From Verrucomicrobiota bacterium (GTDB lineage: Bacteria > Verrucomicrobiota > Verrucomicrobiia > Verrucomicrobiales > V1-33): a DNA stretch of 64,000 bases. The notes below the pieces were generated by a model. That model worked only from the letters and a program-made list of their open reading frames with translations. It did not search any database and was not told where the DNA came from. Both the position numbers and the translations under genes were made by a program. Positions 5,519 to 29,961 of this stretch are shown piece after piece. Location of the stretch: contig JBDKER010000009.1 in assembly GCA_039795165.1 (NCBI GenBank), positions 19,699 through 83,698 of the forward strand. The letters run 5' to 3'. Each line of letters begins with the position of its first letter. Position 1 is the first letter of the stretch.

Positions 5519-8353
5519 ATGAAGAAGTTCCCATTGAATCGTGCCCTCCTTGCTGTCGTGGCAGCCTGTCTGTTTCCGGCGGGAGTCGTGTCTGCCAAGA
5601 AGAACCGGACGGATGTCACTGACAAGGTGGTGGCGGCGGTGAAGGACGAGAGTCTGTTCATGGAGGCCAGCAACGAGATTTTCGGCGACACGGTTCCCGG
5701 GGTTCCCAAGAAGCTGACGGTCGAGTATCAGGCGGGCGATGAGAAGCTGAGCAGCGAGGCTCCGGAGGGCCAGCAGCTGAGGATTTCGGCTCCGGCGGGC
5801 AAAAAGCTGATCATTCTGAAGGCGGTCTATGGTCCGGCGGATGGTTCGGCGCCAGCGAACACGGCGGCCCTTAGCGAGAATCCTGGTGAAGTGCTCGATA
5901 CGGTTCCGGGTTTCAAGGTGGAGCATCTGCTGGAGGCTGATGGCGAGACCAATGGTTCGTGGATCTGCATGACGGTTGATCCGCAGGGTCGGCTTCTCCT
6001 TGGCGGGCAGAGCCAGCAACCGATCACACGAGTGACGCTGCGTGATGGCAAGGTGGTGCAGAGCGAGGTCCTTGCGATTCCCGTGACCGAGGTCATGGGC
6101 ATGCTGTTTGTGGGTGATGTGCTCTATCTGAACGGGAGTGGCAGCCGTGGTTATGGGCTGTACCGCTGCAAGGATGCGAAGGGTGACGGCAGTTATGCCG
6201 AAGTGGAATTTCTGCGTGAGTGGCAGGGTGGTTCCGGGGAACACGGGGCGCACGGACTCGTGCTCGGGCCAGACAAGATGATCTACGCGGTCTGCGGGAA
6301 CTTCACGGCTGTGCCCAAGGACCTTGCTCCCAGCTCACCGCATCGCAATTACGGCGACGATGTCGCGCTCAAGCGGATGGAGGACGGCAATGGTTTCGGA
6401 GCCGGTGCGAAGCCACCGGGTGGCTACGTGGTCCGCATGGACCTTGATGGCAGGAATGCGGAACTCTATTCGTCGGGTCAGCGCAACAACTACGACATTG
6501 CCTTCAATGCCGATGGCCAGCTCTTTGGATTCGACAGCGACATGGAATGGGACTGGGGCACTCCGTGGTACCGTCCGGTGCGTGCCTTCCACATGGTGCG
6601 CGGAGGCGATCATGGCTACCGCGAGGGCAGCATCAAATGGCCGGAGTATTATGCGGACAGCCTGCCTGCCACGGTCAATATCGGGATCGGTTGTCCCACC
6701 GGGGTTGTTTTTGGAACCGGCGCGAAATTCCCCGTCCGCTACCAGAAGGCTTTCTACATCTGCGATTGGACGTATGGACGGCTCATCGCCGTGCACCTCA
6801 AGCCAGATGGCTCGAGCTACGGTGGATCATGGGAAAACTTCGTTGCGCCGAAGTCGCTCAAGGCGCGGGGCGGCAAAGTTCCCCTCAATCTCACGGACTG
6901 TGTGATCGGGTCGGATGGATCCATGTATTTCACGGTGGGTGGCCGCGGTACTCAGGCACATCTTTTCCGGGTTGTCTATGAAGGCAGCGAAGCGGCGGCT
7001 GCCCTCGCGGCCGGTGATCTTCATGACAAGGATGGCAGCGACGTCCGGCAGCTGCGGGAGCGGCTCGAAGCTATGAATGTGGCTCCCGATTCCGCCACGG
7101 TGGAGGCTGCATGGCCGCACCTTGGGCATGCCGACCGCTTCATCCGCTACGCGGCCCGGCTTGCCATCGAACGCAATCCAGTGTCGTCGTGGCAGCAGAA
7201 GGCACTCGATGAAAAGCAGCCTGATGCCGCCTTCACGGCCCTGCTGGCGTTGGCGCGGCTGGGAGCATCGGACAGCCAGACGGCTATTGTCAAAGCGCTG
7301 GCCGCCTTCCCGAATGATGGGCTCAGTGAGTCGCAATTGCTCGGCAAGCTGCGGGTCGTGGCGGTATCGATTGCGCGGCAGGGCGTTCCTTCCGGCGATG
7401 CTGCGAGGCAATTGCTTGCGGACATCAATCCGCTGTACCCGGGGGAATCGGAGACGGTGAACCGCGAGTTGGGACCGATTCTGCTGGCCCTTGAGGCACC
7501 GGATGCGGTGGCCCGCACGGTTTCGCTCCTCCGCCTTGCGACCACCCAGGAAGAACAGATGAATTACGTGGTGGCCCTCCGGAACATCAAGTCGGGCTGG
7601 ACCGAGAATCTGCGCCGTGATTACCTTTCATGGTGGAATGGCGCACGGGCCAATCAGCATCCGCTGCACGTGATGCAGTGGTTCACGGACGCCGGGGTCA
7701 ATTTCAATAACGGTGCCAGCTTCGATGGCTTTGTGCGAAATGCCCTTGAGGAGGTCAAGGCGAGCATGTCGTCGGACGAACTCGCAGCCATGGGCGACCT
7801 CACCAAGGTGAAGTCGAATCTGGCGGTTCCCACGGAAGCCCGGGCCATGGTGAAGGAATGGACCACGGCTGATCTCGCGGCCTCCCTTGGCAAGGCCAGC
7901 AAGGGCCGCGACTTCGCCCGTGGCAAATCCATGTACGCGGCAGCCCAATGCATTCTCTGCCACCGCCACGGCGATCAGGGCGGTGCGGCCGGGCCCGACC
8001 TCACCAATGTGGCCACCCGCTTCCAGCGCCGCGACCTTCTCGAGTCCATCACGGAACCATCGAAGGTGCTCTCGGAACAATACCGCATGACCATCTTCAA
8101 TATGAAAGACGGCAGCGCCGTAGCCGGCCGCATCAGTCAGGAAAACGACAGCACGGCCGTCGTCATGACCAATCCCTTCGATCCCTCCGTGACCAGCACG
8201 GTGGCCATCGCCGATGTCAAATCGCGCGAATTCTCGAAGGCTTCCCTCATGCCCCCGGGCCTCCTCAATACCCTCAGCGAAGACGAGATCCTCGACCTCG
8301 TCGCCTACCTTGAATCCGCCGGCGACCCGAGCCACCCGAACTTCAGCAAGTGA
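5519..8353 (+). CDS. PVC-type heme-binding CxxCH protein (membrane-bound dehydrogenase-like beta-propeller, HEAT repeats, C-terminal cytochrome c domain)
   Basis: Signal peptide MKKFPLNRALLAVVAACLFPAGVVSA. A central sorbosone-dehydrogenase-like region and a HEAT-like helical region follow. The CILCH heme motif is at 7949-7963, followed by ...TNVATRF...SLMPPGLLNTLSEDEILDLVAYLES. Confidence 0.8.
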   Translation: MKKFPLNRALLAVVAACLFPAGVVSAKKNRTDVTDKVVAAVKDESLFMEASNEIFGDTVPGVPKKLTVEYQAGDEKLSSEAPEGQQLRISAPAGKKLIILKAVYGPADGSAPANTAALSENPGEVLDTVPGFKVEHLLEADGETNGSWICMTVDPQGRLLLGGQSQQPITRVTLRDGKVVQSEVLAIPVTEVMGMLFVGDVLYLNGSGSRGYGLYRCKDAKGDGSYAEVEFLREWQGGSGEHGAHGLVLGPDKMIYAVCGNFTAVPKDLAPSSPHRNYGDDVALKRMEDGNGFGAGAKPPGGYVVRMDLDGRNAELYSSGQRNNYDIAFNADGQLFGFDSDMEWDWGTPWYRPVRAFHMVRGGDHGYREGSIKWPEYYADSLPATVNIGIGCPTGVVFGTGAKFPVRYQKAFYICDWTYGRLIAVHLKPDGSSYGGSWENFVAPKSLKARGGKVPLNLTDCVIGSDGSMYFTVGGRGTQAHLFRVVYEGSEAAAALAAGDLHDKDGSDVRQLRERLEAMNVAPDSATVEAAWPHLGHADRFIRYAARLAIERNPVSSWQQKALDEKQPDAAFTALLALARLGASDSQTAIVKALAAFPNDGLSESQLLGKLRVVAVSIARQGVPSGDAARQLLADINPLYPGESETVNRELGPILLALEAPDAVARTVSLLRLATTQEEQMNYVVALRNIKSGWTENLRRDYLSWWNGARANQHPLHVMQWFTDAGVNFNNGASFDGFVRNALEEVKASMSSDELAAMGDLTKVKSNLAVPTEARAMVKEWTTADLAASLGKASKGRDFARGKSMYAAAQCILCHRHGDQGGAAGPDLTNVATRFQRRDLLESITEPSKVLSEQYRMTIFNMKDGSAVAGRISQENDSTAVVMTNPFDPSVTSTVAIADVKSREFSKASLMPPGLLNTLSEDEILDLVAYLESAGDPSHPNFSK

Positions 8354-21802: not shown

Positions 21803-23551
21803 ATGACGATTCCAGAATATCTCGGGCAGCAGTTGAACAAGGCCCTTGTGGCCGCGGGTCTCGATCTGCCTGATGGGTTCCGCGCCACGGTGACGCCGGC
21901 TGCGGACACGCGCTTCGGCGATTACCAGACGAACGCAGCCATGGTGCTTGCGAAGCCCCTGCGGACCAATCCGCGCGCCCTTGCCCAGCAGATTGCGGAC
22001 GTCATCGACACGGAAGGCCTCACGGAAACACCGACGGTGGCCGGGGCCGGTTTTCTGAACTTCACGATCCGTCCGGCCGCGCTGGCCGACCGCATGGCGG
22101 CCCTGCTGAACGACGACCGGCTCGGCGTGGCGCTTCAGGATCCACGGACGATTGTCATCGATTTCTCAGCCCCCAATGTGGCCAAGCAGATGCATGTGGG
22201 TCACATCCGGAGTACGATCATCGGCGACTGCCTTGCGCGCACCGCGAGGTTTCTGGGTCACCGGGTCATTACGGACAATCACATTGGCGACTGGGGCACG
22301 CAGTTCGGCATGGTGCTGTACGGATGGAAGCGGGAACTGAACCGCGAGGCTCTCGCTCACGATCCCATCCGGGAACTGCTGCGGCTCTACAAGGCAGTGA
22401 ATGCCGAATCCAAGGCCGAGGAAGATGCGAAGGAACGCGGGGAACGGAACGACACGCCCACCCGGGACGCCTGCAAGGCCGAGTTGGTCCGCCTCCAGGC
22501 CGGCGACCCCGAAAACCTCGCCATCTGGAAGCAATGTGTCGAAGTTTCGCTCGAAGGATTGTCGGCGGTCTACGGTAAACTTGATGTGACCTTCGACCAT
22601 TTCCTTGGCGAAAGTCATTACAATGCGGCCCTGCCTGGCGTGGTGCAGGAACTGCTCGCGAAGGGGATTGCGCGGGAAAGCGAAGGTGCGGTCTGCGTCT
22701 TCTTCGATGACATTCCCGCCCTCGCGGACAAGGCCCCGTTCATTGTGCGGAAATCCGACGGAGGCTATGGCTATGCGACCACAGATGTGGCCACCGTGCT
22801 GCACCGCGTGCAGGAATGGAAAGCCGATGAAATCTGGTACGTGGTCGGAGCGCCCCAGGCACTCCACTTCGAACAACTCTTCGCAACCGTCCGCCGCATG
22901 GGCCTGCAGCCGGTCATGCAGCACATCGCCTTCGGCAGCATTCTCGGAGCCGACGGCCGCATGATGAAGACACGCAGCGGCGAAAGCGTCGGCCTCCTCG
23001 AAGTCCTCGAAGAAGCCGAGGAACGCGCCCGCGCCACTGTCGAGGAAAAGAATCCCGACCTTTCCCCCGAGGAAAAGGCCGCCATCGCCACGGCCGTCGG
23101 CATCGGTGCCGTCAAATACCAGGAACTCAGCCAGGGCCGCCTCACGGATTACAAGTTTGTCTGGGACAAGATGCTCGCCTTTCAGGGGAATACGGCCCCG
23201 TACCTCCAGTACAGCTATGTGCGGACCCGGTCGATTTTCCGGAAACTCGAAGGGACCGCCGACTTGGCGGGTCCATACGAACTGAGTCAGCCCGAGGAAC
23301 GCGAACTCGCCCTCCTGCTGAGCCGCTACGCGGAAGCCGTGCCCGCCGTCCTCGAGGATTTCCGCCCGAACGTCCTTGCAGGCTATGTCTACGATGTGGC
23401 GCGCGCCTTCCATTCGTTTTTCGAAGCCTGTCCCGTGCTCCGCGCCGAGGGATCGGTCCGGGCCACCCGGCTGGCCCTCTGCGAACTGACTTCCCGCGTC
23501 CTCCGCAGCGGACTCGACCTCCTTGGCATCCGGGTCACTGAACGCATGTGA
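21803..23551 (+). CDS. argS: arginine--tRNA ligase
   Basis: FGDYQTNAAM, SAPNVAKQMHVGHIRSTIIGD (HIGH-type motif), MMKTRSG (KMSK-type motif), and a C-terminal DALR anticodon-binding pattern ending ...GIRVTERM. Confidence 0.95.
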   Translation: MTIPEYLGQQLNKALVAAGLDLPDGFRATVTPAADTRFGDYQTNAAMVLAKPLRTNPRALAQQIADVIDTEGLTETPTVAGAGFLNFTIRPAALADRMAALLNDDRLGVALQDPRTIVIDFSAPNVAKQMHVGHIRSTIIGDCLARTARFLGHRVITDNHIGDWGTQFGMVLYGWKRELNREALAHDPIRELLRLYKAVNAESKAEEDAKERGERNDTPTRDACKAELVRLQAGDPENLAIWKQCVEVSLEGLSAVYGKLDVTFDHFLGESHYNAALPGVVQELLAKGIARESEGAVCVFFDDIPALADKAPFIVRKSDGGYGYATTDVATVLHRVQEWKADEIWYVVGAPQALHFEQLFATVRRMGLQPVMQHIAFGSILGADGRMMKTRSGESVGLLEVLEEAEERARATVEEKNPDLSPEEKAAIATAVGIGAVKYQELSQGRLTDYKFVWDKMLAFQGNTAPYLQYSYVRTRSIFRKLEGTADLAGPYELSQPEERELALLLSRYAEAVPAVLEDFRPNVLAGYVYDVARAFHSFFEACPVLRAEGSVRATRLALCELTSRVLRSGLDLLGIRVTERM

Positions 23552-23657
23552 GCGGTCCGGCCGCCCGCGGAACTGCCTGATGGAAAAGCTTGCCGAATTC
23601 CGCGGCTGCGGCCACATTTGCCAGATAGAGAATCCCACGACCCACGCTTTTGCCGAG

Positions 23658-25118
23658 ATGAAAAAATTCCCATTTCCCCTGACTGTGCTGTTTGCTGCTG
23701 CCGGGCTGTCCCTTTGCGGGATGGCTCATGCGCAGGAAGCCGCCGCGTTCCGCCGATTCACCCTGAATGACGGCAAGACCTTCTACGCCGTGATCACGGC
23801 CAAGTCGTCGACTTCCGTCACCTTCAAGCTGCAGAATGGAAAGACGAGCACACAGCCGATGCGCGCCCTCAGCGAGCCGGATGCTCAATTCGTGCGCAAG
23901 TGGACGAAGTTCAAGGATGACCTTCTCAACAACGCGGAGTTCGCCTCGCTCACGGTCAAGGAAATGCTGGAACTGCGCGGCTACCAGTCATTCGAGTTCG
24001 ACATTGAGGGAAATCATATTTTCGTGGACGGCGAAGTCGGCGGCAAGAACATGCGCTTCATGATCGATACCGGAGCGCATTCGTCGATCATTCACGATGG
24101 TTCGGCCAAGGAGGCGGGGCTTGAGATCGGGCCATACGATCAGGAAATCCGCGGGGTGGCGGGATCGCAGAAGGCGGCGGTGACCCGCATCAGTGTGCTC
24201 AAGCTCGGCGATACCGTGGTCGAGAACCGCAAGTTGCTCGCCACGGACTTCATTCCCATCGGCGGCGGGCCCGGGCAATTTGAAGTGATCTTCGGAGCGG
24301 ACTTCCTGCGCGAACTCGATGCGGTCATCAGCTACCGCGAAGGCCGGATCTTTCTGAAGCCGGACAACATCGTGAAGAAGGGCGCGCCCGCCGGCAAGCC
24401 TGCCGATGCGGCGACGGCACCGAAGGCGGATTTCCGCCGCTGGACGAGTTCGGATGGCACGAAGAACTTCCAAGCCGCCCTCGTCGACAAGACGGAAAAG
24501 GACGCCACCTTCCGCATGCAGGGCGATAAGCTCGTGAAGCTGGAACTCGACAAGCTCAGCGAAGGCGACCGCGAAGTGGTCGCCAAATGGAGCAAGCTGC
24601 GCGACGATCTCGCCAAGAATCCCGAGTGGCGCACGCTAACGGTCAAGGAACTCCTCGAACTGCGGACGTACCAGTCTTTCGAGTACCGTCTCGAGGGCAA
24701 TCACATCCTCGTCGATGGCAAGATCGGCGACACGAAGACCCGCTTCCTCATCGACACTGGTGCCCATTCCTGCACGATGGACTACAAGTTCGCCAAGGAA
24801 ATCGCCAAACTCGAAGTCGGCGAACTCGGCGAGACAAAGATCCGCGGCATTGGCGGGGAAGCGCCCGCCGCCTTCACGAAGATTCCCGTGATCACCCTCG
24901 GCGAGGCCGTCATCCGCGAGCGCCAGGCTGTCAGCGCTGAAATCCACAAGCGGGCCATCGGTGGGGAAGGGAATCACGACGCCCTCTTTGGTGCCGAATT
25001 CCTCCGCGAACTCGACGCCGTCATCAATTACAAGGAAGGCCGCATGTTCCTCAAGCCGGACAACTCGGACAAGGAAGAAGGCAAAAAGGAAGCCAAGCCG
25101 GAAAAGGAAAGCATCTGA
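23658..25118 (+). CDS. secreted protein with two tandem (SHD1-like domain + retropepsin-like aspartic protease domain) modules
   Basis: Signal peptide MKKFPFPLTVLFAAAGLSLCGMAHA. Two ~235-aa internal repeats are visible by eye: FRRFTLNDGKTF.../FRRWTSSDGTKNF...; LTVKEMLELRGYQSFEF.../LTVKELLELRTYQSFEY...; FMIDTGAHSS/FLIDTGAHSC; FGADFLRELDAVISYREGRIFLKPDN/FGAEFLRELDAVINYKEGRMFLKPDN. Confidence 0.7.
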   Translation: MKKFPFPLTVLFAAAGLSLCGMAHAQEAAAFRRFTLNDGKTFYAVITAKSSTSVTFKLQNGKTSTQPMRALSEPDAQFVRKWTKFKDDLLNNAEFASLTVKEMLELRGYQSFEFDIEGNHIFVDGEVGGKNMRFMIDTGAHSSIIHDGSAKEAGLEIGPYDQEIRGVAGSQKAAVTRISVLKLGDTVVENRKLLATDFIPIGGGPGQFEVIFGADFLRELDAVISYREGRIFLKPDNIVKKGAPAGKPADAATAPKADFRRWTSSDGTKNFQAALVDKTEKDATFRMQGDKLVKLELDKLSEGDREVVAKWSKLRDDLAKNPEWRTLTVKELLELRTYQSFEYRLEGNHILVDGKIGDTKTRFLIDTGAHSCTMDYKFAKEIAKLEVGELGETKIRGIGGEAPAAFTKIPVITLGEAVIRERQAVSAEIHKRAIGGEGNHDALFGAEFLRELDAVINYKEGRMFLKPDNSDKEEGKKEAKPEKESI

Positions 25119-25155
25119 GTCCGGCTTCCAAAGCGGAGACAATTCATCAGAACGG

Positions 25156-25196
25156 AAAACCCCGGCGGACGACTCGATCCGCCGGGGTTTTTCTTT
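25156..25196. terminator. bidirectional intrinsic terminator between convergent genes
   Basis: AAAACCCCGGCGGA-cgactcga-TCCGCCGGGGTTTTTCTTT. The GC stem is perfect and is flanked by an A-run and a T-run, so it can terminate both strands. Confidence 0.8.
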
Positions 25197-25224
25197 GGAA
25201 GGAATGCGGCTCGGCCGAGCGCTG

Positions 25225-26732: not shown

Positions 26733-29024
26733 TCAGGGAGCGAGGCGGATGCTGTGTGGTCTCGCTTCCCTGTTGCCGGCGTCGTCGGTGGCTTCGGCGG
26801 TGATGGCGTCCGCTGCGGGGAGGGAGAGTTCCCAGTCGGCCACGCCGTGCTGCTGACTGATGATGGTGGCGGGGGAACCATTGATGGTGATGGCCTGCAC
26901 GGATTCATTGTCGTGCGAGACCCCGCGGACGGTGAGTTTTCCTTCGCTGCGGTGGATCTCTGTGATCATGGTGGCGGGCGGAAGGTCATCGACTGGGCTG
27001 AGCAATTCCGGGAATTCGTAGTGCAAGGTCCGCGAGGCGACGACATCCGGTCCGGTGAATCCATCCATGGGAGCGTAGCCTCGTTTGGCGAGCTGATCCG
27101 GAAAGTGACGGCTGACCACTTCGATGGTCTGGCCGCCTGTGGCCGGGGATGGATGGAAGATGTAGACGACCGGATGCTGGCGTGTTTCGCTGCGCGGGCC
27201 GCCGCCGAGGTCGACGACCTTGCTTTCGGAACGGCAGTTTTCGATGATAAGACCGCGGAAGTGGCCGGTGACAGTTTCCGGGGCTGTGCAGGCCAGCTGG
27301 ATGAGGGGATCGCGTCCGGTGCGGCAATTGCGGAGCGTGACCTCATCCATGGTGAAATTCCCGTACTGGATGCTTTCGTCGTCGTGGCCGCGGTTGATGG
27401 GTTCGCTTTCCACGGTGTCGAGAGTGATGTGGCGGTAGACGTGGTGGTCGTAGTCCGGGTGGTAGATGCCGTAGACGGCGCGCTGCACATGGAGGCCGTC
27501 GCAGAGGAAGAAGCGGAGATTCGGACGGAGCGAGTAATGGGTTTCCCATGCCCGCAGCTGACGGACGATGAAGGGGTGGCCGCGGTCGCTGCTGGTATGG
27601 CGTCCATCGTCGTCGCCGAGATTGAAGCTGTAGAGGCCTTCCGTGTGCGATTCATTGGCCTCGAAGCGGAGGAAGGGAAGGTGGCGCACGTCCGTGTCCT
27701 GCGGTTTTCCATCCGGCCGCGGCAGTGACAGGACCGGGCTGAAGTTGCTGAACTGGCGGACTTCGAAGCGGAAGCCATAGCGGTCGTTTTCGCAGGCGAC
27801 ATTCCGGGTGAAGGCATTGCGGCCATTGGCCCACCAGAAGCCTGCTCCGTCATTGGGATCGAAGGGGAGGGCTTGTTTCGGGAGGCGCGGGGCCGCGGTG
27901 GCCTGGACCGCGAGATTGCGGTCGAGGAGGTTCCATTGTTCCGTGGCGTCTTCGAGGAAGAAGCCATGGCCTTTGGACTGATAACCGACGCAGTCGCGTA
28001 CGAGGAGGTGGTCGGTTCCATGGATGGTGATCCAGCGGTTGTGGCTGTCCCAGATGCTGGCTCCGGTGACGCCGCTGCCGCGCATGGTGTTTCCGGCGAG
28101 GTGGAAATGGATGGCGTATTTGCCAAGGAGGCCGGTTTTGCCGAGGTGACGGAATTCGGCATAGCTGATCCCACCGGCGGAATCGCGGTGGTACATGGTG
28201 TGGCCTCGGATGCCCTCCGGCTGGGCGCTTTCGATGACGACATTGCGGCTGAGAAGGGCTGCTTCCGACTGGCGGAAGGATTCGCCGAGGTGATGGTAAT
28301 CGAGGGGGCGGTCAAGGGTCAGGCGCTGGCCCTCGATGGCGGAAATGAGACGGCGTTCCGTGGCTCCGCCGGCTGCGGTGGCCTGCGCCTTCGTGAATTC
28401 CGGTTCGAGCGATCCCGTCACAATGACCTGCTGGCCGGGCCGCCAGCCAGTGGGTGGCTCGGCGAGGGTGACTTCGCTGGCACCGGGTTTGGCCGTGGCC
28501 GCCAGCTTGAGCCATGTGCGGGGCATGGGGCTGCCGTGGACGTCCCAGCGGCCGCCGCAGGCCACAATGGCAGGCAGAGTTTCCGGATTCATGCCCGGGA
28601 AGTGACGGAGCCGGATGCGGGCCGAAATTCCCGCCGGAATCGGCTGCGCGCGCGTGCCGATTTCGAGCGCGGGGAGCGGGCCGTCCGCCGCCGCCTCCGG
28701 GGCTTCCTCATGACAATCGAAGCCATCTTCCGAGCATGTGCCGCCCGGGGAAATGCGGATCAGTCCCGCCGTGAGCAGCGTGTTGCGGTCGCGCGAAAAC
28801 GTCAGTGTTCCCGCCACGTGGACGACGCGGAAGGCATCGTCCGACGCGACATCGTAGACCACCGTGTGGCCCTTGTGAATCTGGACCGACTCACCATCGC
28901 GGGGAGGTTTGCCATTCCATGTGGCCGGGTCCGACCATGGGCCGCTGCGGACCGAGCTGGCATCGAAGGCAACGGGAGCGGCGTGGGCAGCCGTGGCCAG
29001 CAGAGGAATGAGAAGGGCGCGCAT
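26733..29024 (-). CDS. G8 domain / right-handed beta-helix protein, secreted
   Basis: Start MRALLIPLLATAAHA at 29024. SGPWSDPATWNGKPPRDGESVQIHKGHTVVYDV matches the G8-domain opening pattern. The rest is beta-helix-like (repeated G..H/W..N motifs). Confidence 0.6.
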   Translation of the reverse strand: MRALLIPLLATAAHAAPVAFDASSVRSGPWSDPATWNGKPPRDGESVQIHKGHTVVYDVASDDAFRVVHVAGTLTFSRDRNTLLTAGLIRISPGGTCSEDGFDCHEEAPEAAADGPLPALEIGTRAQPIPAGISARIRLRHFPGMNPETLPAIVACGGRWDVHGSPMPRTWLKLAATAKPGASEVTLAEPPTGWRPGQQVIVTGSLEPEFTKAQATAAGGATERRLISAIEGQRLTLDRPLDYHHLGESFRQSEAALLSRNVVIESAQPEGIRGHTMYHRDSAGGISYAEFRHLGKTGLLGKYAIHFHLAGNTMRGSGVTGASIWDSHNRWITIHGTDHLLVRDCVGYQSKGHGFFLEDATEQWNLLDRNLAVQATAAPRLPKQALPFDPNDGAGFWWANGRNAFTRNVACENDRYGFRFEVRQFSNFSPVLSLPRPDGKPQDTDVRHLPFLRFEANESHTEGLYSFNLGDDDGRHTSSDRGHPFIVRQLRAWETHYSLRPNLRFFLCDGLHVQRAVYGIYHPDYDHHVYRHITLDTVESEPINRGHDDESIQYGNFTMDEVTLRNCRTGRDPLIQLACTAPETVTGHFRGLIIENCRSESKVVDLGGGPRSETRQHPVVYIFHPSPATGGQTIEVVSRHFPDQLAKRGYAPMDGFTGPDVVASRTLHYEFPELLSPVDDLPPATMITEIHRSEGKLTVRGVSHDNESVQAITINGSPATIISQQHGVADWELSLPAADAITAEATDDAGNREARPHSIRLAP

Positions 29025-29106
29025 GTTGCCGGAAGGATCCGGCAGAGCATGCGCGCCCGGCAACACCGCAGGCGCGTGGGCCTGCTGGTGTGATGTGATG
29101 ATGGGA

Positions 29107-29961
29107 TTACTTCGCGGCGGCGGTGGCCGGAGCGTAGCCCGCCACGGGATTACCGGCATCGTCCAGCTTGCCGCAGGCCCAGAGGAGACCGCGGGTCACG
29201 AGGTTGAGGTAGCGGTCGTCCGCGACCGTTTCGTTGTTGTGGCCGAGGCTCGTGCTGAAGATGCGGGTCTTCTTCTCGCCGTATTCGTGCGACCACACGA
29301 CCACGGTTTCCTGGTTTTCCTGTTTGCCTTTGGCGAGTGTGGTGGCCGTCGGATACACCTGAATGTTGTTGTAGAGTTCCTCCTTGATGGTCGTCCAGTT
29401 GGCGAGGCCCTTGGTGGCGGGGTGTTTGTCGTCCGTGTAGGTCACGTCGATGGGCTTCTGGGGACCGTGGCCGGTGCTCTGGAGACCGAGCATATCGAAC
29501 CACATGGCGTCGGTCGATCCCGGGGTGACGGGTTTGGCAATCTGGCCGACGCGGTAGCAATGCATGGCGCAGTGCAGATTGACGGCCGGGACCCCGTTCT
29601 TGTGGGCGTCAAGGATATTCTGGACATAGGCCGTGTCCTTGATGTCGGCCGAGCATTCGTCATGAATGACCACGTCGTAGTTATTGGCCCAGTCCTTGCC
29701 TTCGTAGCAGGGGAAGGTCGCCTTCGTGCTGCTGTCCGGGGAATAGCAGACCGTAACTTCGACATTGGCGCGGCTCTCGATGCCCGCCTTGAGCAGATCC
29801 TTCTGCGTTTTGTAATCGTGACAGCAGCCGCCGATCACAAGAAGGGCCTTGAGGGGAGCTGGCTTGCCTTTGGTTTCAGCGACCGAAGGCATGCTCAGGA
29901 AAGCAGCCGATCCGAGCACGAGGGAGGCAGCGGCGAAGGGGAGGAGTTGGCGTTTGTTCAT
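29107..29961 (-). CDS. ThuA domain-containing protein (secreted)
   Basis: Start MNKRQLLPFAAASLVLGSAAF at 29961. LKALLVIGGCCHDY..., VIHDECSA, AVNLHCAMHCY and WSHEYGEKKTRIFSTSLGHNNET are ThuA-like. Confidence 0.75.
   Translation of the reverse strand: MNKRQLLPFAAASLVLGSAAFLSMPSVAETKGKPAPLKALLVIGGCCHDYKTQKDLLKAGIESRANVEVTVCYSPDSSTKATFPCYEGKDWANNYDVVIHDECSADIKDTAYVQNILDAHKNGVPAVNLHCAMHCYRVGQIAKPVTPGSTDAMWFDMLGLQSTGHGPQKPIDVTYTDDKHPATKGLANWTTIKEELYNNIQVYPTATTLAKGKQENQETVVVWSHEYGEKKTRIFSTSLGHNNETVADDRYLNLVTRGLLWACGKLDDAGNPVAGYAPATAAAK

Follow-up and report, generated by a model that had tools for sequence, protein, structure and literature searches.

The window analysed here, a 64,000-nucleotide stretch of the genome of a Verrucomicrobiota bacterium (contig JBDKER010000009.1, positions 19,699 to 83,698 of the forward strand), encodes at 23658-25118 on its plus strand a 486-aa protein built from two copies of one module, each with an SHD1-like beta barrel and a retropepsin-like lobe. 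We consider this protein to be probably, though by no means certainly, a Sec-exported aspartic endopeptidase with a duplicated module, in which D137 and D366 would form the dyad of a single intrachain cleft; the packing of the lobes is taken from a structural model. The protein exemplifies a bacterial architecture that is widespread, partly solved and apparently undescribed.

Two copies of one module in a putatively exported protein

The reading frame at 23658-25118 (+) appeared in the list of open reading frames (ORFs) and in the sequence, with an ATG start that is an inner ATG of a longer ORF at 23523..25118. A preliminary description of this DNA, made from its letters, had called the product a secreted protein of 486 aa; the ORF is present as described, and its first residues (MKKFPFPLTVLFAAAGLSLCGMAHA/QE) have, by eye, the character of a Sec signal peptide. 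No conserved lipobox was found at the signal peptide, and this region was unconserved in the family consensus.

When residues 26-251 were compared with residues 252-486 by BLASTP, 48% identity was observed over 225 residues (E=3e-70), bearing out the earlier view of two copies of one unit. The two modules, about 230 aa each, were 48-50% identical. In each, a short helical linker joins an SHD1-like barrel to a retropepsin-like lobe that carries a D-T-G-A motif. The second D-T-G (GACACTGGT) lies at 24753-24761, where it had been placed before; the first (GATACCGGA) lies at 24066-24074 and not at 24064-24072, and module 2 starts at approximately 24432 (K-A-D-F-R-R-W) instead of 24480. The features of the gene are as follows (HMM, hidden Markov model; pLDDT, predicted local distance difference test).

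23658..25118 (+), whole two-module gene, 486 aa, stop codon included (ORF list, sequence, more than 120 full-length relatives)
23658..23735 (+), predicted signal peptide, aa 1-26, MKK...AHA/QE (read from the sequence; model helix with pLDDT<50)
23745..23903 (+), SHD1-like beta barrel 1, aa 30-82, FRRFTLNDGK...LSEPDAQFVRKW (model strands 32-67 and helix 73-81; hhalign; Pfam SHD1 12.9 bits)
23904..23981 (+), helical linker 1, aa 83-108, with the conserved L-E-L-R-G-Y-Q at its end (model helices 84-106; L104, E105, G108, Y109 and Q110 invariant)
23982..24365 (+), retropepsin-like lobe 1, aa 109-236 (Asp_protease_2 E=9e-14 for the half alone; lobe HMM domain E=1.6e-68)
24066..24077 (+), putative catalytic motif 1, D137-T-G-A, GAT ACC GGA GCG (sequence; invariant in 38 sequences)
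24366..24431 (+), inter-module linker, aa 237-258, disordered, with little conservation (pLDDT<50 for 239-255; no family consensus)
24432..24590 (+), SHD1-like beta barrel 2, aa 259-311, DFRRWTSSDGTKNF...LSEGDREVVAKW (model strands 260-296 and helix 302-310; aligns to barrel 1; SHD1-unit HMM E=1.9e-25)
24591..24668 (+), helical linker 2, aa 312-337 (model helices 313-334; E331, L332, L333, L335 and R336 invariant)
24669..25061 (+), retropepsin-like lobe 2, aa 338-468 (Asp_protease_2 E=9e-12 for the half alone; lobe HMM domain E=1.5e-63)
24753..24764 (+), putative catalytic motif 2, D366-T-G-A, GAC ACT GGT GCC (sequence; invariant in 38 sequences)
25062..25115 (+), Lys/Glu-rich disordered C-terminal tail, aa 469-486 (pLDDT<50 for 475-486; unconserved)

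Both lobes match retropepsin-like proteases and are equally conserved

The Pfam family Asp_protease_2 (PF13650, curated cut-off 24.3 bits) matched the whole protein in two stretches with 95.3 bits, and each half alone with 52.4 bits (E=9e-14) and 46.0 bits (E=9e-12), respectively. The whole protein also passed the NCBIfam model TIGR02281 (clan_AA_DTGA) with 69.4 bits against a cut-off of 57.95. By these profiles and its motifs, the 486-aa protein is a member of the retropepsin-like group of clan AA.

Conservation was evaluated in an alignment of 38 family members, down to 50% identity to the window protein. D137, T138, G139 and A140 of lobe 1 and D366, T367, G368 and A369 of lobe 2 were invariant. 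A second retropepsin motif, I/L-F-G-A-D/E-F-L-R-E-L-D, was conserved near the C-terminus of the lobes, with G213 and D215 invariant in lobe 1 and F444, G445 and A446 in lobe 2; the L-E-L-R-G-Y-Q segment ahead of each lobe was likewise conserved. Both claims made earlier for the copies, a retropepsin-like fold and a catalytic D-T-G-A in each, thus agree with the two Asp_protease_2 matches, the TIGR02281 score and the invariant motifs. The lobes of the window protein (approximately 130 aa each) were 50% identical; across the family their mean column identity was 0.75 and 0.74, and only four positions were fixed differently. The column comparison shows both modules to be under equal purifying selection, with neither lobe decaying.

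The two lobes are predicted to pack like a retropepsin dimer

An AlphaFold2 model computed on the family alignment had a mean pLDDT of 81.4 and a predicted template modelling score (pTM) of 0.73, and its only disordered parts were the tail, the signal peptide and residues 239-255 of the inter-module linker. In each module, the model contained a five-strand barrel with a helix (32-81 and 260-310), three or four short helices (84-106 and 313-334) and a beta-rich lobe (110-233 and 339-465). The strand pattern of the model, alike in both lobes, suggests a flap hairpin in each.

Lobe packing was judged from the template modelling (TM) scores of Foldseek matches to two-lobe targets in the Protein Data Bank (PDB). 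The top match was 9iy9 (E=7e-10, 394 columns), an exported two-lobe protein of Bacteroides fragilis. Tethered HIV-1 protease dimers (4eq0, 1lv1, 4qlh and 2o40) were matched over approximately 360 columns, the extent of lobes 1 and 2 with all that lies between them, at TM 0.64-0.68 when normalised to the tethered-dimer target of 198-203 residues. A single-lobe match to Rickettsia APRc reached TM 0.71. Bilobed pepsins (plasmepsins, renin and proteinase A) were matched over approximately 420 columns at TM of about 0.5 and 10-13% identity. Because the tethered-dimer match spans both lobes, at a TM-score nearly equal to that of the single-lobe APRc match, the modelled lobes are in a retropepsin-dimer arrangement; the two lobes of one chain are predicted to be paired in that geometry. 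The earlier proposal that one chain supplies both catalytic Asp residues gains from this that the modelled lobes sit against each other and can be superposed on tethered HIV dimers, while catalysis and pairing are still predictions. Two contrary outcomes had been named alongside that proposal, lobes unable to share a cleft and a lack of profile support for a protease fold; in our analysis the modelled lobes came together and protease profiles matched both of them.

Chains with two or more lobes are common

A large protein collection contained 411 relatives of the 486-aa protein. Nearly all of the best 120 were approximately 440-550 aa long and were matched in both modules; one was a 308-aa fragment. 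Named relatives were annotated as 'aspartyl protease family protein [Verrucomicrobiales bacterium]', and the public protein P0001 was 99-100% identical to the window protein. Among species-representative genomes, a relative was encoded in 133 species-level genomes of Verrucomicrobiales; almost all of the 80 loci listed from this set matched over both modules. Cultured carriers include Luteolibacter marinus, Luteolibacter sp. Populi and Haloferula chungangensis, and the window itself was 99% identical to a freshwater verrucomicrobial metagenome-assembled genome.

When one module (aa 27-251) was searched exhaustively against 1.84 billion representatives, 1413 matches were obtained. The number of lobes per chain among the best 150 of these was as follows.

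Two lobes: 98
Three lobes: 3 (P0181, P0218 and P0243)
Four lobes: 4 (P0158, P0165, P0214 and P0268)
One lobe: 36, many being contig-end fragments

At least two lobes were therefore present in 105 of the best 150 representatives, counts that are not frequencies because ranking by summed score favours multi-lobe proteins. D-[TS]-G was kept in both lobes in 96 of the 104 two-lobe proteins examined, and in Pfam several unrelated architectures carry two Asp_protease_2 stretches. Judged from these searches, a chain with two or more lobes is a common bacterial layout and not a rare invention. The rarity implied in the preliminary description did not survive these counts, and a natural example, 9iy9, had already been solved. 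A survey of one- and two-module versions had also been called for in that description; the module search recovered both forms among the representatives, together with further layouts.

One-module class, approximately 230 aa, signal peptide with SHD1-like barrel and one lobe: P0145, P0146, P0151 and P0163
Barrel-lobe-lobe class: P0149
Lobe-lobe class, approximately 330 aa, without barrel: P0166, P0168, P0171 and P0173
Module, inserted domain and module: P0137
Kinase, RCC1 repeats and two modules, approximately 1100 aa: P0150
Degenerate-motif class, two-module or one-module: P0154 and P0174

P0150 (1106 aa) was one of four giant proteins, with P0156, P0213 and P0235, in which two complete SHD1-plus-lobe modules at the C-terminus are combined with RCC1-like repeats and, at the N-terminus, a fragment of a protein kinase. 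A search with a one-module protein returned 10 clusters. At two loci (L082, 8001-8693; L083, 3073-3765) a solitary one-module gene encoded 230 aa with an SHD1-like barrel and one lobe; it followed genes for a lipid-A acyltransferase, an Elm1-like protein and a GT4 glycosyltransferase, an envelope-biogenesis setting. No second copy of the module adjoined the one-module gene at either locus.

The whole module was duplicated within the family

A neighbour-joining tree was built from 247 lobes over 137 columns, without support values and with 9iy9 left out. The smallest clade that contained both window lobes had 20 leaves, all from the family of the window protein, in keeping with the independent bacterial duplication and fusion that had been suggested earlier. 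By contrast, the first and second lobes of the ~330-aa family formed deeply separated clades, and several other proteins had sister lobes. The fusion in the window-protein family appears to be separate from that in other two-lobe families. What makes its lineage-specific origin robust is mainly that the duplication took in all three parts of the module and not the lobe alone.

At the module level, orthologous halves within the family were 54-56% identical and the two halves of one protein 46-50%. Orthologous halves were thus slightly closer than the halves of one protein, indicating that the duplication predates the radiation of the family. In the more distant two-module relatives P0123 and P0124, the halves were 57% and 49% alike, respectively, and thus nearer to one another than to either window half (39-49%); the halves of P0127 and P0128 were only approximately 30% alike. 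These values indicate that the two-module state was created several times or was homogenised by intragenic conversion. Within the window gene, the repeat at the DNA level had a period of 693-696 nt, and its best stretch, of 80 nt, was 80% identical. As long identical tracts were absent, a recent conversion between the halves of this gene was rejected.

SHD1-like barrels and an SHD1-bearing partner protein

A gene for an SHD1-bearing protein of approximately 430 aa adjoined the protease gene in 60 of the 80 related loci, as counted by targeted tblastn. This adjacency is newly noted here and was an unexpected by-product of the analysis. The partner gene lay upstream on the same strand, divergently upstream or convergently downstream, as in these two examples.

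L004, 4394-5704 (-), partner gene beside the protease gene at 5911-7404 (+)
L072, 4916-6190 (+), partner gene adjoining a tandem protease gene

Luteolibacter sp. Populi (locus L067) and Haloferula chungangensis (locus L079) are among the carriers of the neighbouring gene.

The partner family had 142 matches, all of them 'hypothetical protein' from Verrucomicrobiales. In the protein, a signal peptide is followed by a genuine SHD1 unit and by an alpha/beta domain of approximately 330 residues, which was modelled with high confidence (pLDDT 87 and pTM 0.85). The only structural match of this domain was a weak one, to an M61 gluzincin aminopeptidase (probability 0.87); it had no HExxH motif and no Pfam match. 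The protease and its partner can be unlinked, because one relative has the partner gene elsewhere on the same 2.3-Mb contig.

The barrels of the protease matched the SHD1 unit of the partner family with 96% probability (hhalign, E=4.6e-9, 51 columns). The N-terminal unit of the partner family in turn matched the SHD1 domain of yeast Sla1 (2hbp) by profile (E=0.0056) and by fold (TM 0.72, rmsd 2.7 A, 25% identity). The term SHD1-like is justified as distant homology because the barrels match the partner unit and the partner unit matches Sla1 SHD1. When isolated barrel units were scanned singly, 9 of 30 matched SHD1, all below the threshold (best E=8e-4), and the other weak matches were to other SH3-like barrels; the one-module relative P0145 reached 23.1 bits, against the Pfam cut-off of 23.7. 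The SHD1 label given earlier therefore stands as distant homology through the partner family and not as a match at the level of Pfam. With Sla1 SHD1 (PF03983, 2hbp) the barrels share a small beta-barrel fold and the pattern R-x-W-x-x-x-G ... L-S-x-x-D-x-x-Y/F, and they differ in that the protease barrels themselves fall under the Pfam cut-off. In the yeast cytoplasm, this domain binds NPFxD endocytic signals; we know of no ligand of exported bacterial SHD1-like units.

Proposed function and alternatives

In the scheme that we favour, the gene product would be exported by Sec and be periplasmic or secreted. An entire module of SHD1-like barrel, helical linker and retropepsin lobe was duplicated in tandem and fused, and the lobes of one chain would pack like the subunits of a retropepsin homodimer. 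D137 and D366 would then be the catalytic dyad, each lobe contributing a flap hairpin over the shared cleft. The result would be an active cell-envelope endopeptidase whose two SHD1-like barrels may serve as docking units for a substrate or a partner, the ~430-aa SHD1-bearing neighbour protein being the candidate docking partner.

Several observations weigh against this scheme. AlphaFold may impose homodimer geometry on homologous lobes, as signals within and between chains are indistinguishable. Chains with three lobes do not fit strict pairwise packing within a chain. The D-T-G motif was replaced in P0154 (481 aa; VDPGRF and LNTSIP) and in P0174 (221 aa; IDPR), and, because some relatives lost the catalytic motifs, the scaffold can serve non-catalytic roles. 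Regarding the barrels, Pfam SHD1 (PF03983) gave the window protein 12.9 bits, below the cut-off of 23.7, and a barrel profile searched against PDB sequences found no solved structure, with only a chance match to Rpn13. Finally, the partner gene was absent from the 64-kb window.

In an alternative to the pairing of lobes within one chain, equivalent lobes would pair between chains (lobe 1 with lobe 1', lobe 2 with lobe 2'), or chains would pair head to tail, giving oligomers with at least two active sites. Retropepsin-like lobes do homodimerise, the Rlo proteases being C2 dimers (PMC12239564). The geometry of the window protein forces nothing, because approximately 105 residues separate its lobes, and such an assembly would suit both the existence of three-lobe proteins and the likeness of the two lobes, which have kept 50% identity and are fixed differently at four positions only. 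However, the monomer model (pTM 0.73) packs lobe 1 on lobe 2 and matches tethered dimers across both lobes, the numbers of lobes in relatives were overwhelmingly even (98 proteins with two and 4 with four versus 3 with three), and the best structural match, over 394 columns, was the natural two-lobe chain 9iy9. We regard pairing between chains as unlikely.

The non-catalytic possibility is that the protein is a cell-envelope binding or scaffold protein, in which the retropepsin fold and the SHD1 barrels were reused for protein recognition. Four recognition-type domains in one chain would suit such a role, as would the relatives with degenerate catalytic motifs (P0154, P0174, and also P0130 and P0159, where D-T-G was replaced by DAGT and DTQA). 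These four are probable pseudo-proteases on the same scaffold. In the family of the window protein, by contrast, both D-T-G-A motifs are invariant and G-A-D/E is conserved in the 38 sequences, the pattern expected of catalysis, and a role in binding alone seems slightly more improbable still. Self-cleavage of a polyprotein-like precursor in the linker after export, leaving one-module subunits as a non-covalent heterodimer, would accord with the disordered and unconserved linker (aa 237-258), the autoprocessing of the bacterial retropepsin-like APRc (PMC4140852) and the existence of free-standing one-module proteins of approximately 230 aa, but it is the least probable of these alternatives, with no conserved cleavage motif seen in the linker, fused chains with short linkers being common (approximately 20-40 residues between lobes in ~330-aa families) and 9iy9 solved as one chain of 420 residues.

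Beyond the endopeptidase itself, a broader idea can be offered tentatively, although it is rather unlikely: the one-module forms (presumed homodimers), the fused forms and the re-duplicated or homogenised forms in Verrucomicrobiales might be a living series of the duplication and fusion from which pepsins have long been proposed to stem, and the protease and its SHD1-bearing partner might be an envelope-processing pair in which the barrels do the recruiting. If true, bacterial SHD1 domains would thereby gain their first assigned function. The conserved pairing with an SHD1-bearing protein is in any case a first handle on SHD1-like domains in PVC (Planctomycetes-Verrucomicrobia-Chlamydiae) bacteria.

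Gene neighbourhood and transcription

The neighbours of the gene in the window encode Kup, a LolA-like protein, arginyl-tRNA synthetase, a Gfo/Idh/MocA oxidoreductase and a G8/beta-helix protein. Only relatives of 93% identity or more had these neighbours in common with the window, and a homologue of 75% identity had a different neighbourhood. An operon with these five genes was rejected because the neighbours were kept only at 93% identity or above. A Rlo-like operon was also rejected, as neither a transglutaminase-like nor an ATP-grasp gene was near the protease gene. An HMM scan of the 64-kb window found no further lobe or SHD1-like unit outside the protease gene.

An intrinsic terminator was predicted directly downstream.

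25154..25198 (+), terminator hairpin with a T-run after it (RNA fold -31.6 kcal/mol, z=-6.0, 0/200 shuffles as stable)

The hairpin begins 36 nt past the stop codon, between the protease gene and the convergent Gfo/Idh/MocA gene; it was found by RNA folding and was not picked up by a pattern scan. The protease gene looks like a stand-alone transcription unit because the hairpin and T-run separate it from the convergent gene. A sigma-70 promoter scan found nothing, such a scan being uninformative for this phylum. Two genes downstream of the protease gene, a gene at 26733-29159 (-) codes for a protein of 808 aa in which a G8 domain is combined with a CEMIP-type beta-helix. Both domains are best known from animal proteins, and the gene was kept only in the locus of the closest relative.

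Comparison with known systems

The closest engineered counterparts are the tethered HIV-1 protease dimers, which also place two retropepsin lobes and one active site in one chain, the shared site of the window protein being taken from the model. The HIV dimers are artificial, with identical halves and a linker of a few residues; in the window protein the halves are 48-50% identical and approximately 105 residues, including a folded barrel, lie between the lobes.

Enzymes of pepsin family A1 (pepsin, renin, plasmepsins and the bacterial shewasins) resemble the window protein in having one chain with two homologous lobes and one catalytic Asp in each. Their lobes are diverged, asymmetric and approximately 160 aa long, whereas those of the window protein are approximately 130 aa, symmetric and equally conserved. 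In pepsins only the N-lobe carries a flap. No match to the Pfam pepsin family (A1, Asp PF00026) was obtained at E up to 1; with no profile match and small symmetric lobes, the 486-aa protein is not, by sequence, a member of family A1. The term pepsin-like used in the preliminary description is thus apt for the principle and not for the family, the lobes being equal and the model nearer to a tethered retropepsin dimer.

The duplication-fusion route from a homodimeric one-lobe enzyme to bilobed proteases, with the pepsin layout as its end state, was proposed by Tang et al. in 1978 (as cited in PMC4140852), and that idea rests mainly on structural symmetry. With many two-lobe families in bacteria, the fusion step would have been repeated there and would still be young enough to read. 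Its readable traces are halves that are 30-57% identical, one-module relatives that are extant and, in the model, flaps kept on both lobes. Such proteins offer a tractable system for studying what fusion buys, including stability and asymmetric specificity.

Among characterised bacterial proteases, Pseudomonas RloA/RimB and Rickettsia APRc share with the window protein the lobe fold, the D-T-G-A motif, the Pfam family and TIGR02281. They differ from it in being one-lobe obligate homodimers without an SHD1-like barrel. Rlo proteases are exported via a signal peptide and are C2 dimers both in solution and in the crystal, their dyad lying at the interface, and RloA, encoded in an operon with transglutaminase-like and ATP-grasp proteins, cleaves poly-glutamate tails (PMC12239564). 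For APRc, autoprocessing has been documented (PMC4140852). A search of the open-access literature on single-chain or tandem bacterial retropepsin-like proteins, Asp_protease_2 and bacterial SHD1 returned the papers on Rlo/RimB and APRc and nothing else of relevance, and no open-access paper on 9iy9 was found.

The nearest natural relative in layout is 9iy9 (Bacteroides fragilis, 420 aa, 'putative endopeptidase' or 'exported protein', released 2025-08-06), an exported chain whose two lobes each carry a D-T-G (166-267, FDTGAGTS; 298-408, FDTGNSTA). Because it has two lobes in one chain, a natural bacterial single-chain two-lobe protein has already been solved experimentally. The novelty of the window protein is limited accordingly: its layout is common in sequence databases, and one example has been solved. 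9iy9 differs from our model in sequence (13% identity) and in fold (TM 0.40/0.46), has a short inter-lobe linker and no SHD1-like unit, and carries a single N-terminal domain of approximately 150 residues instead of a barrel before each lobe. Compared with 9iy9, the window protein is distinctive in that the duplicated unit includes the SHD1-like barrel and the helical linker, and, in most relatives, in the pairing of its gene with that of another SHD1 protein.

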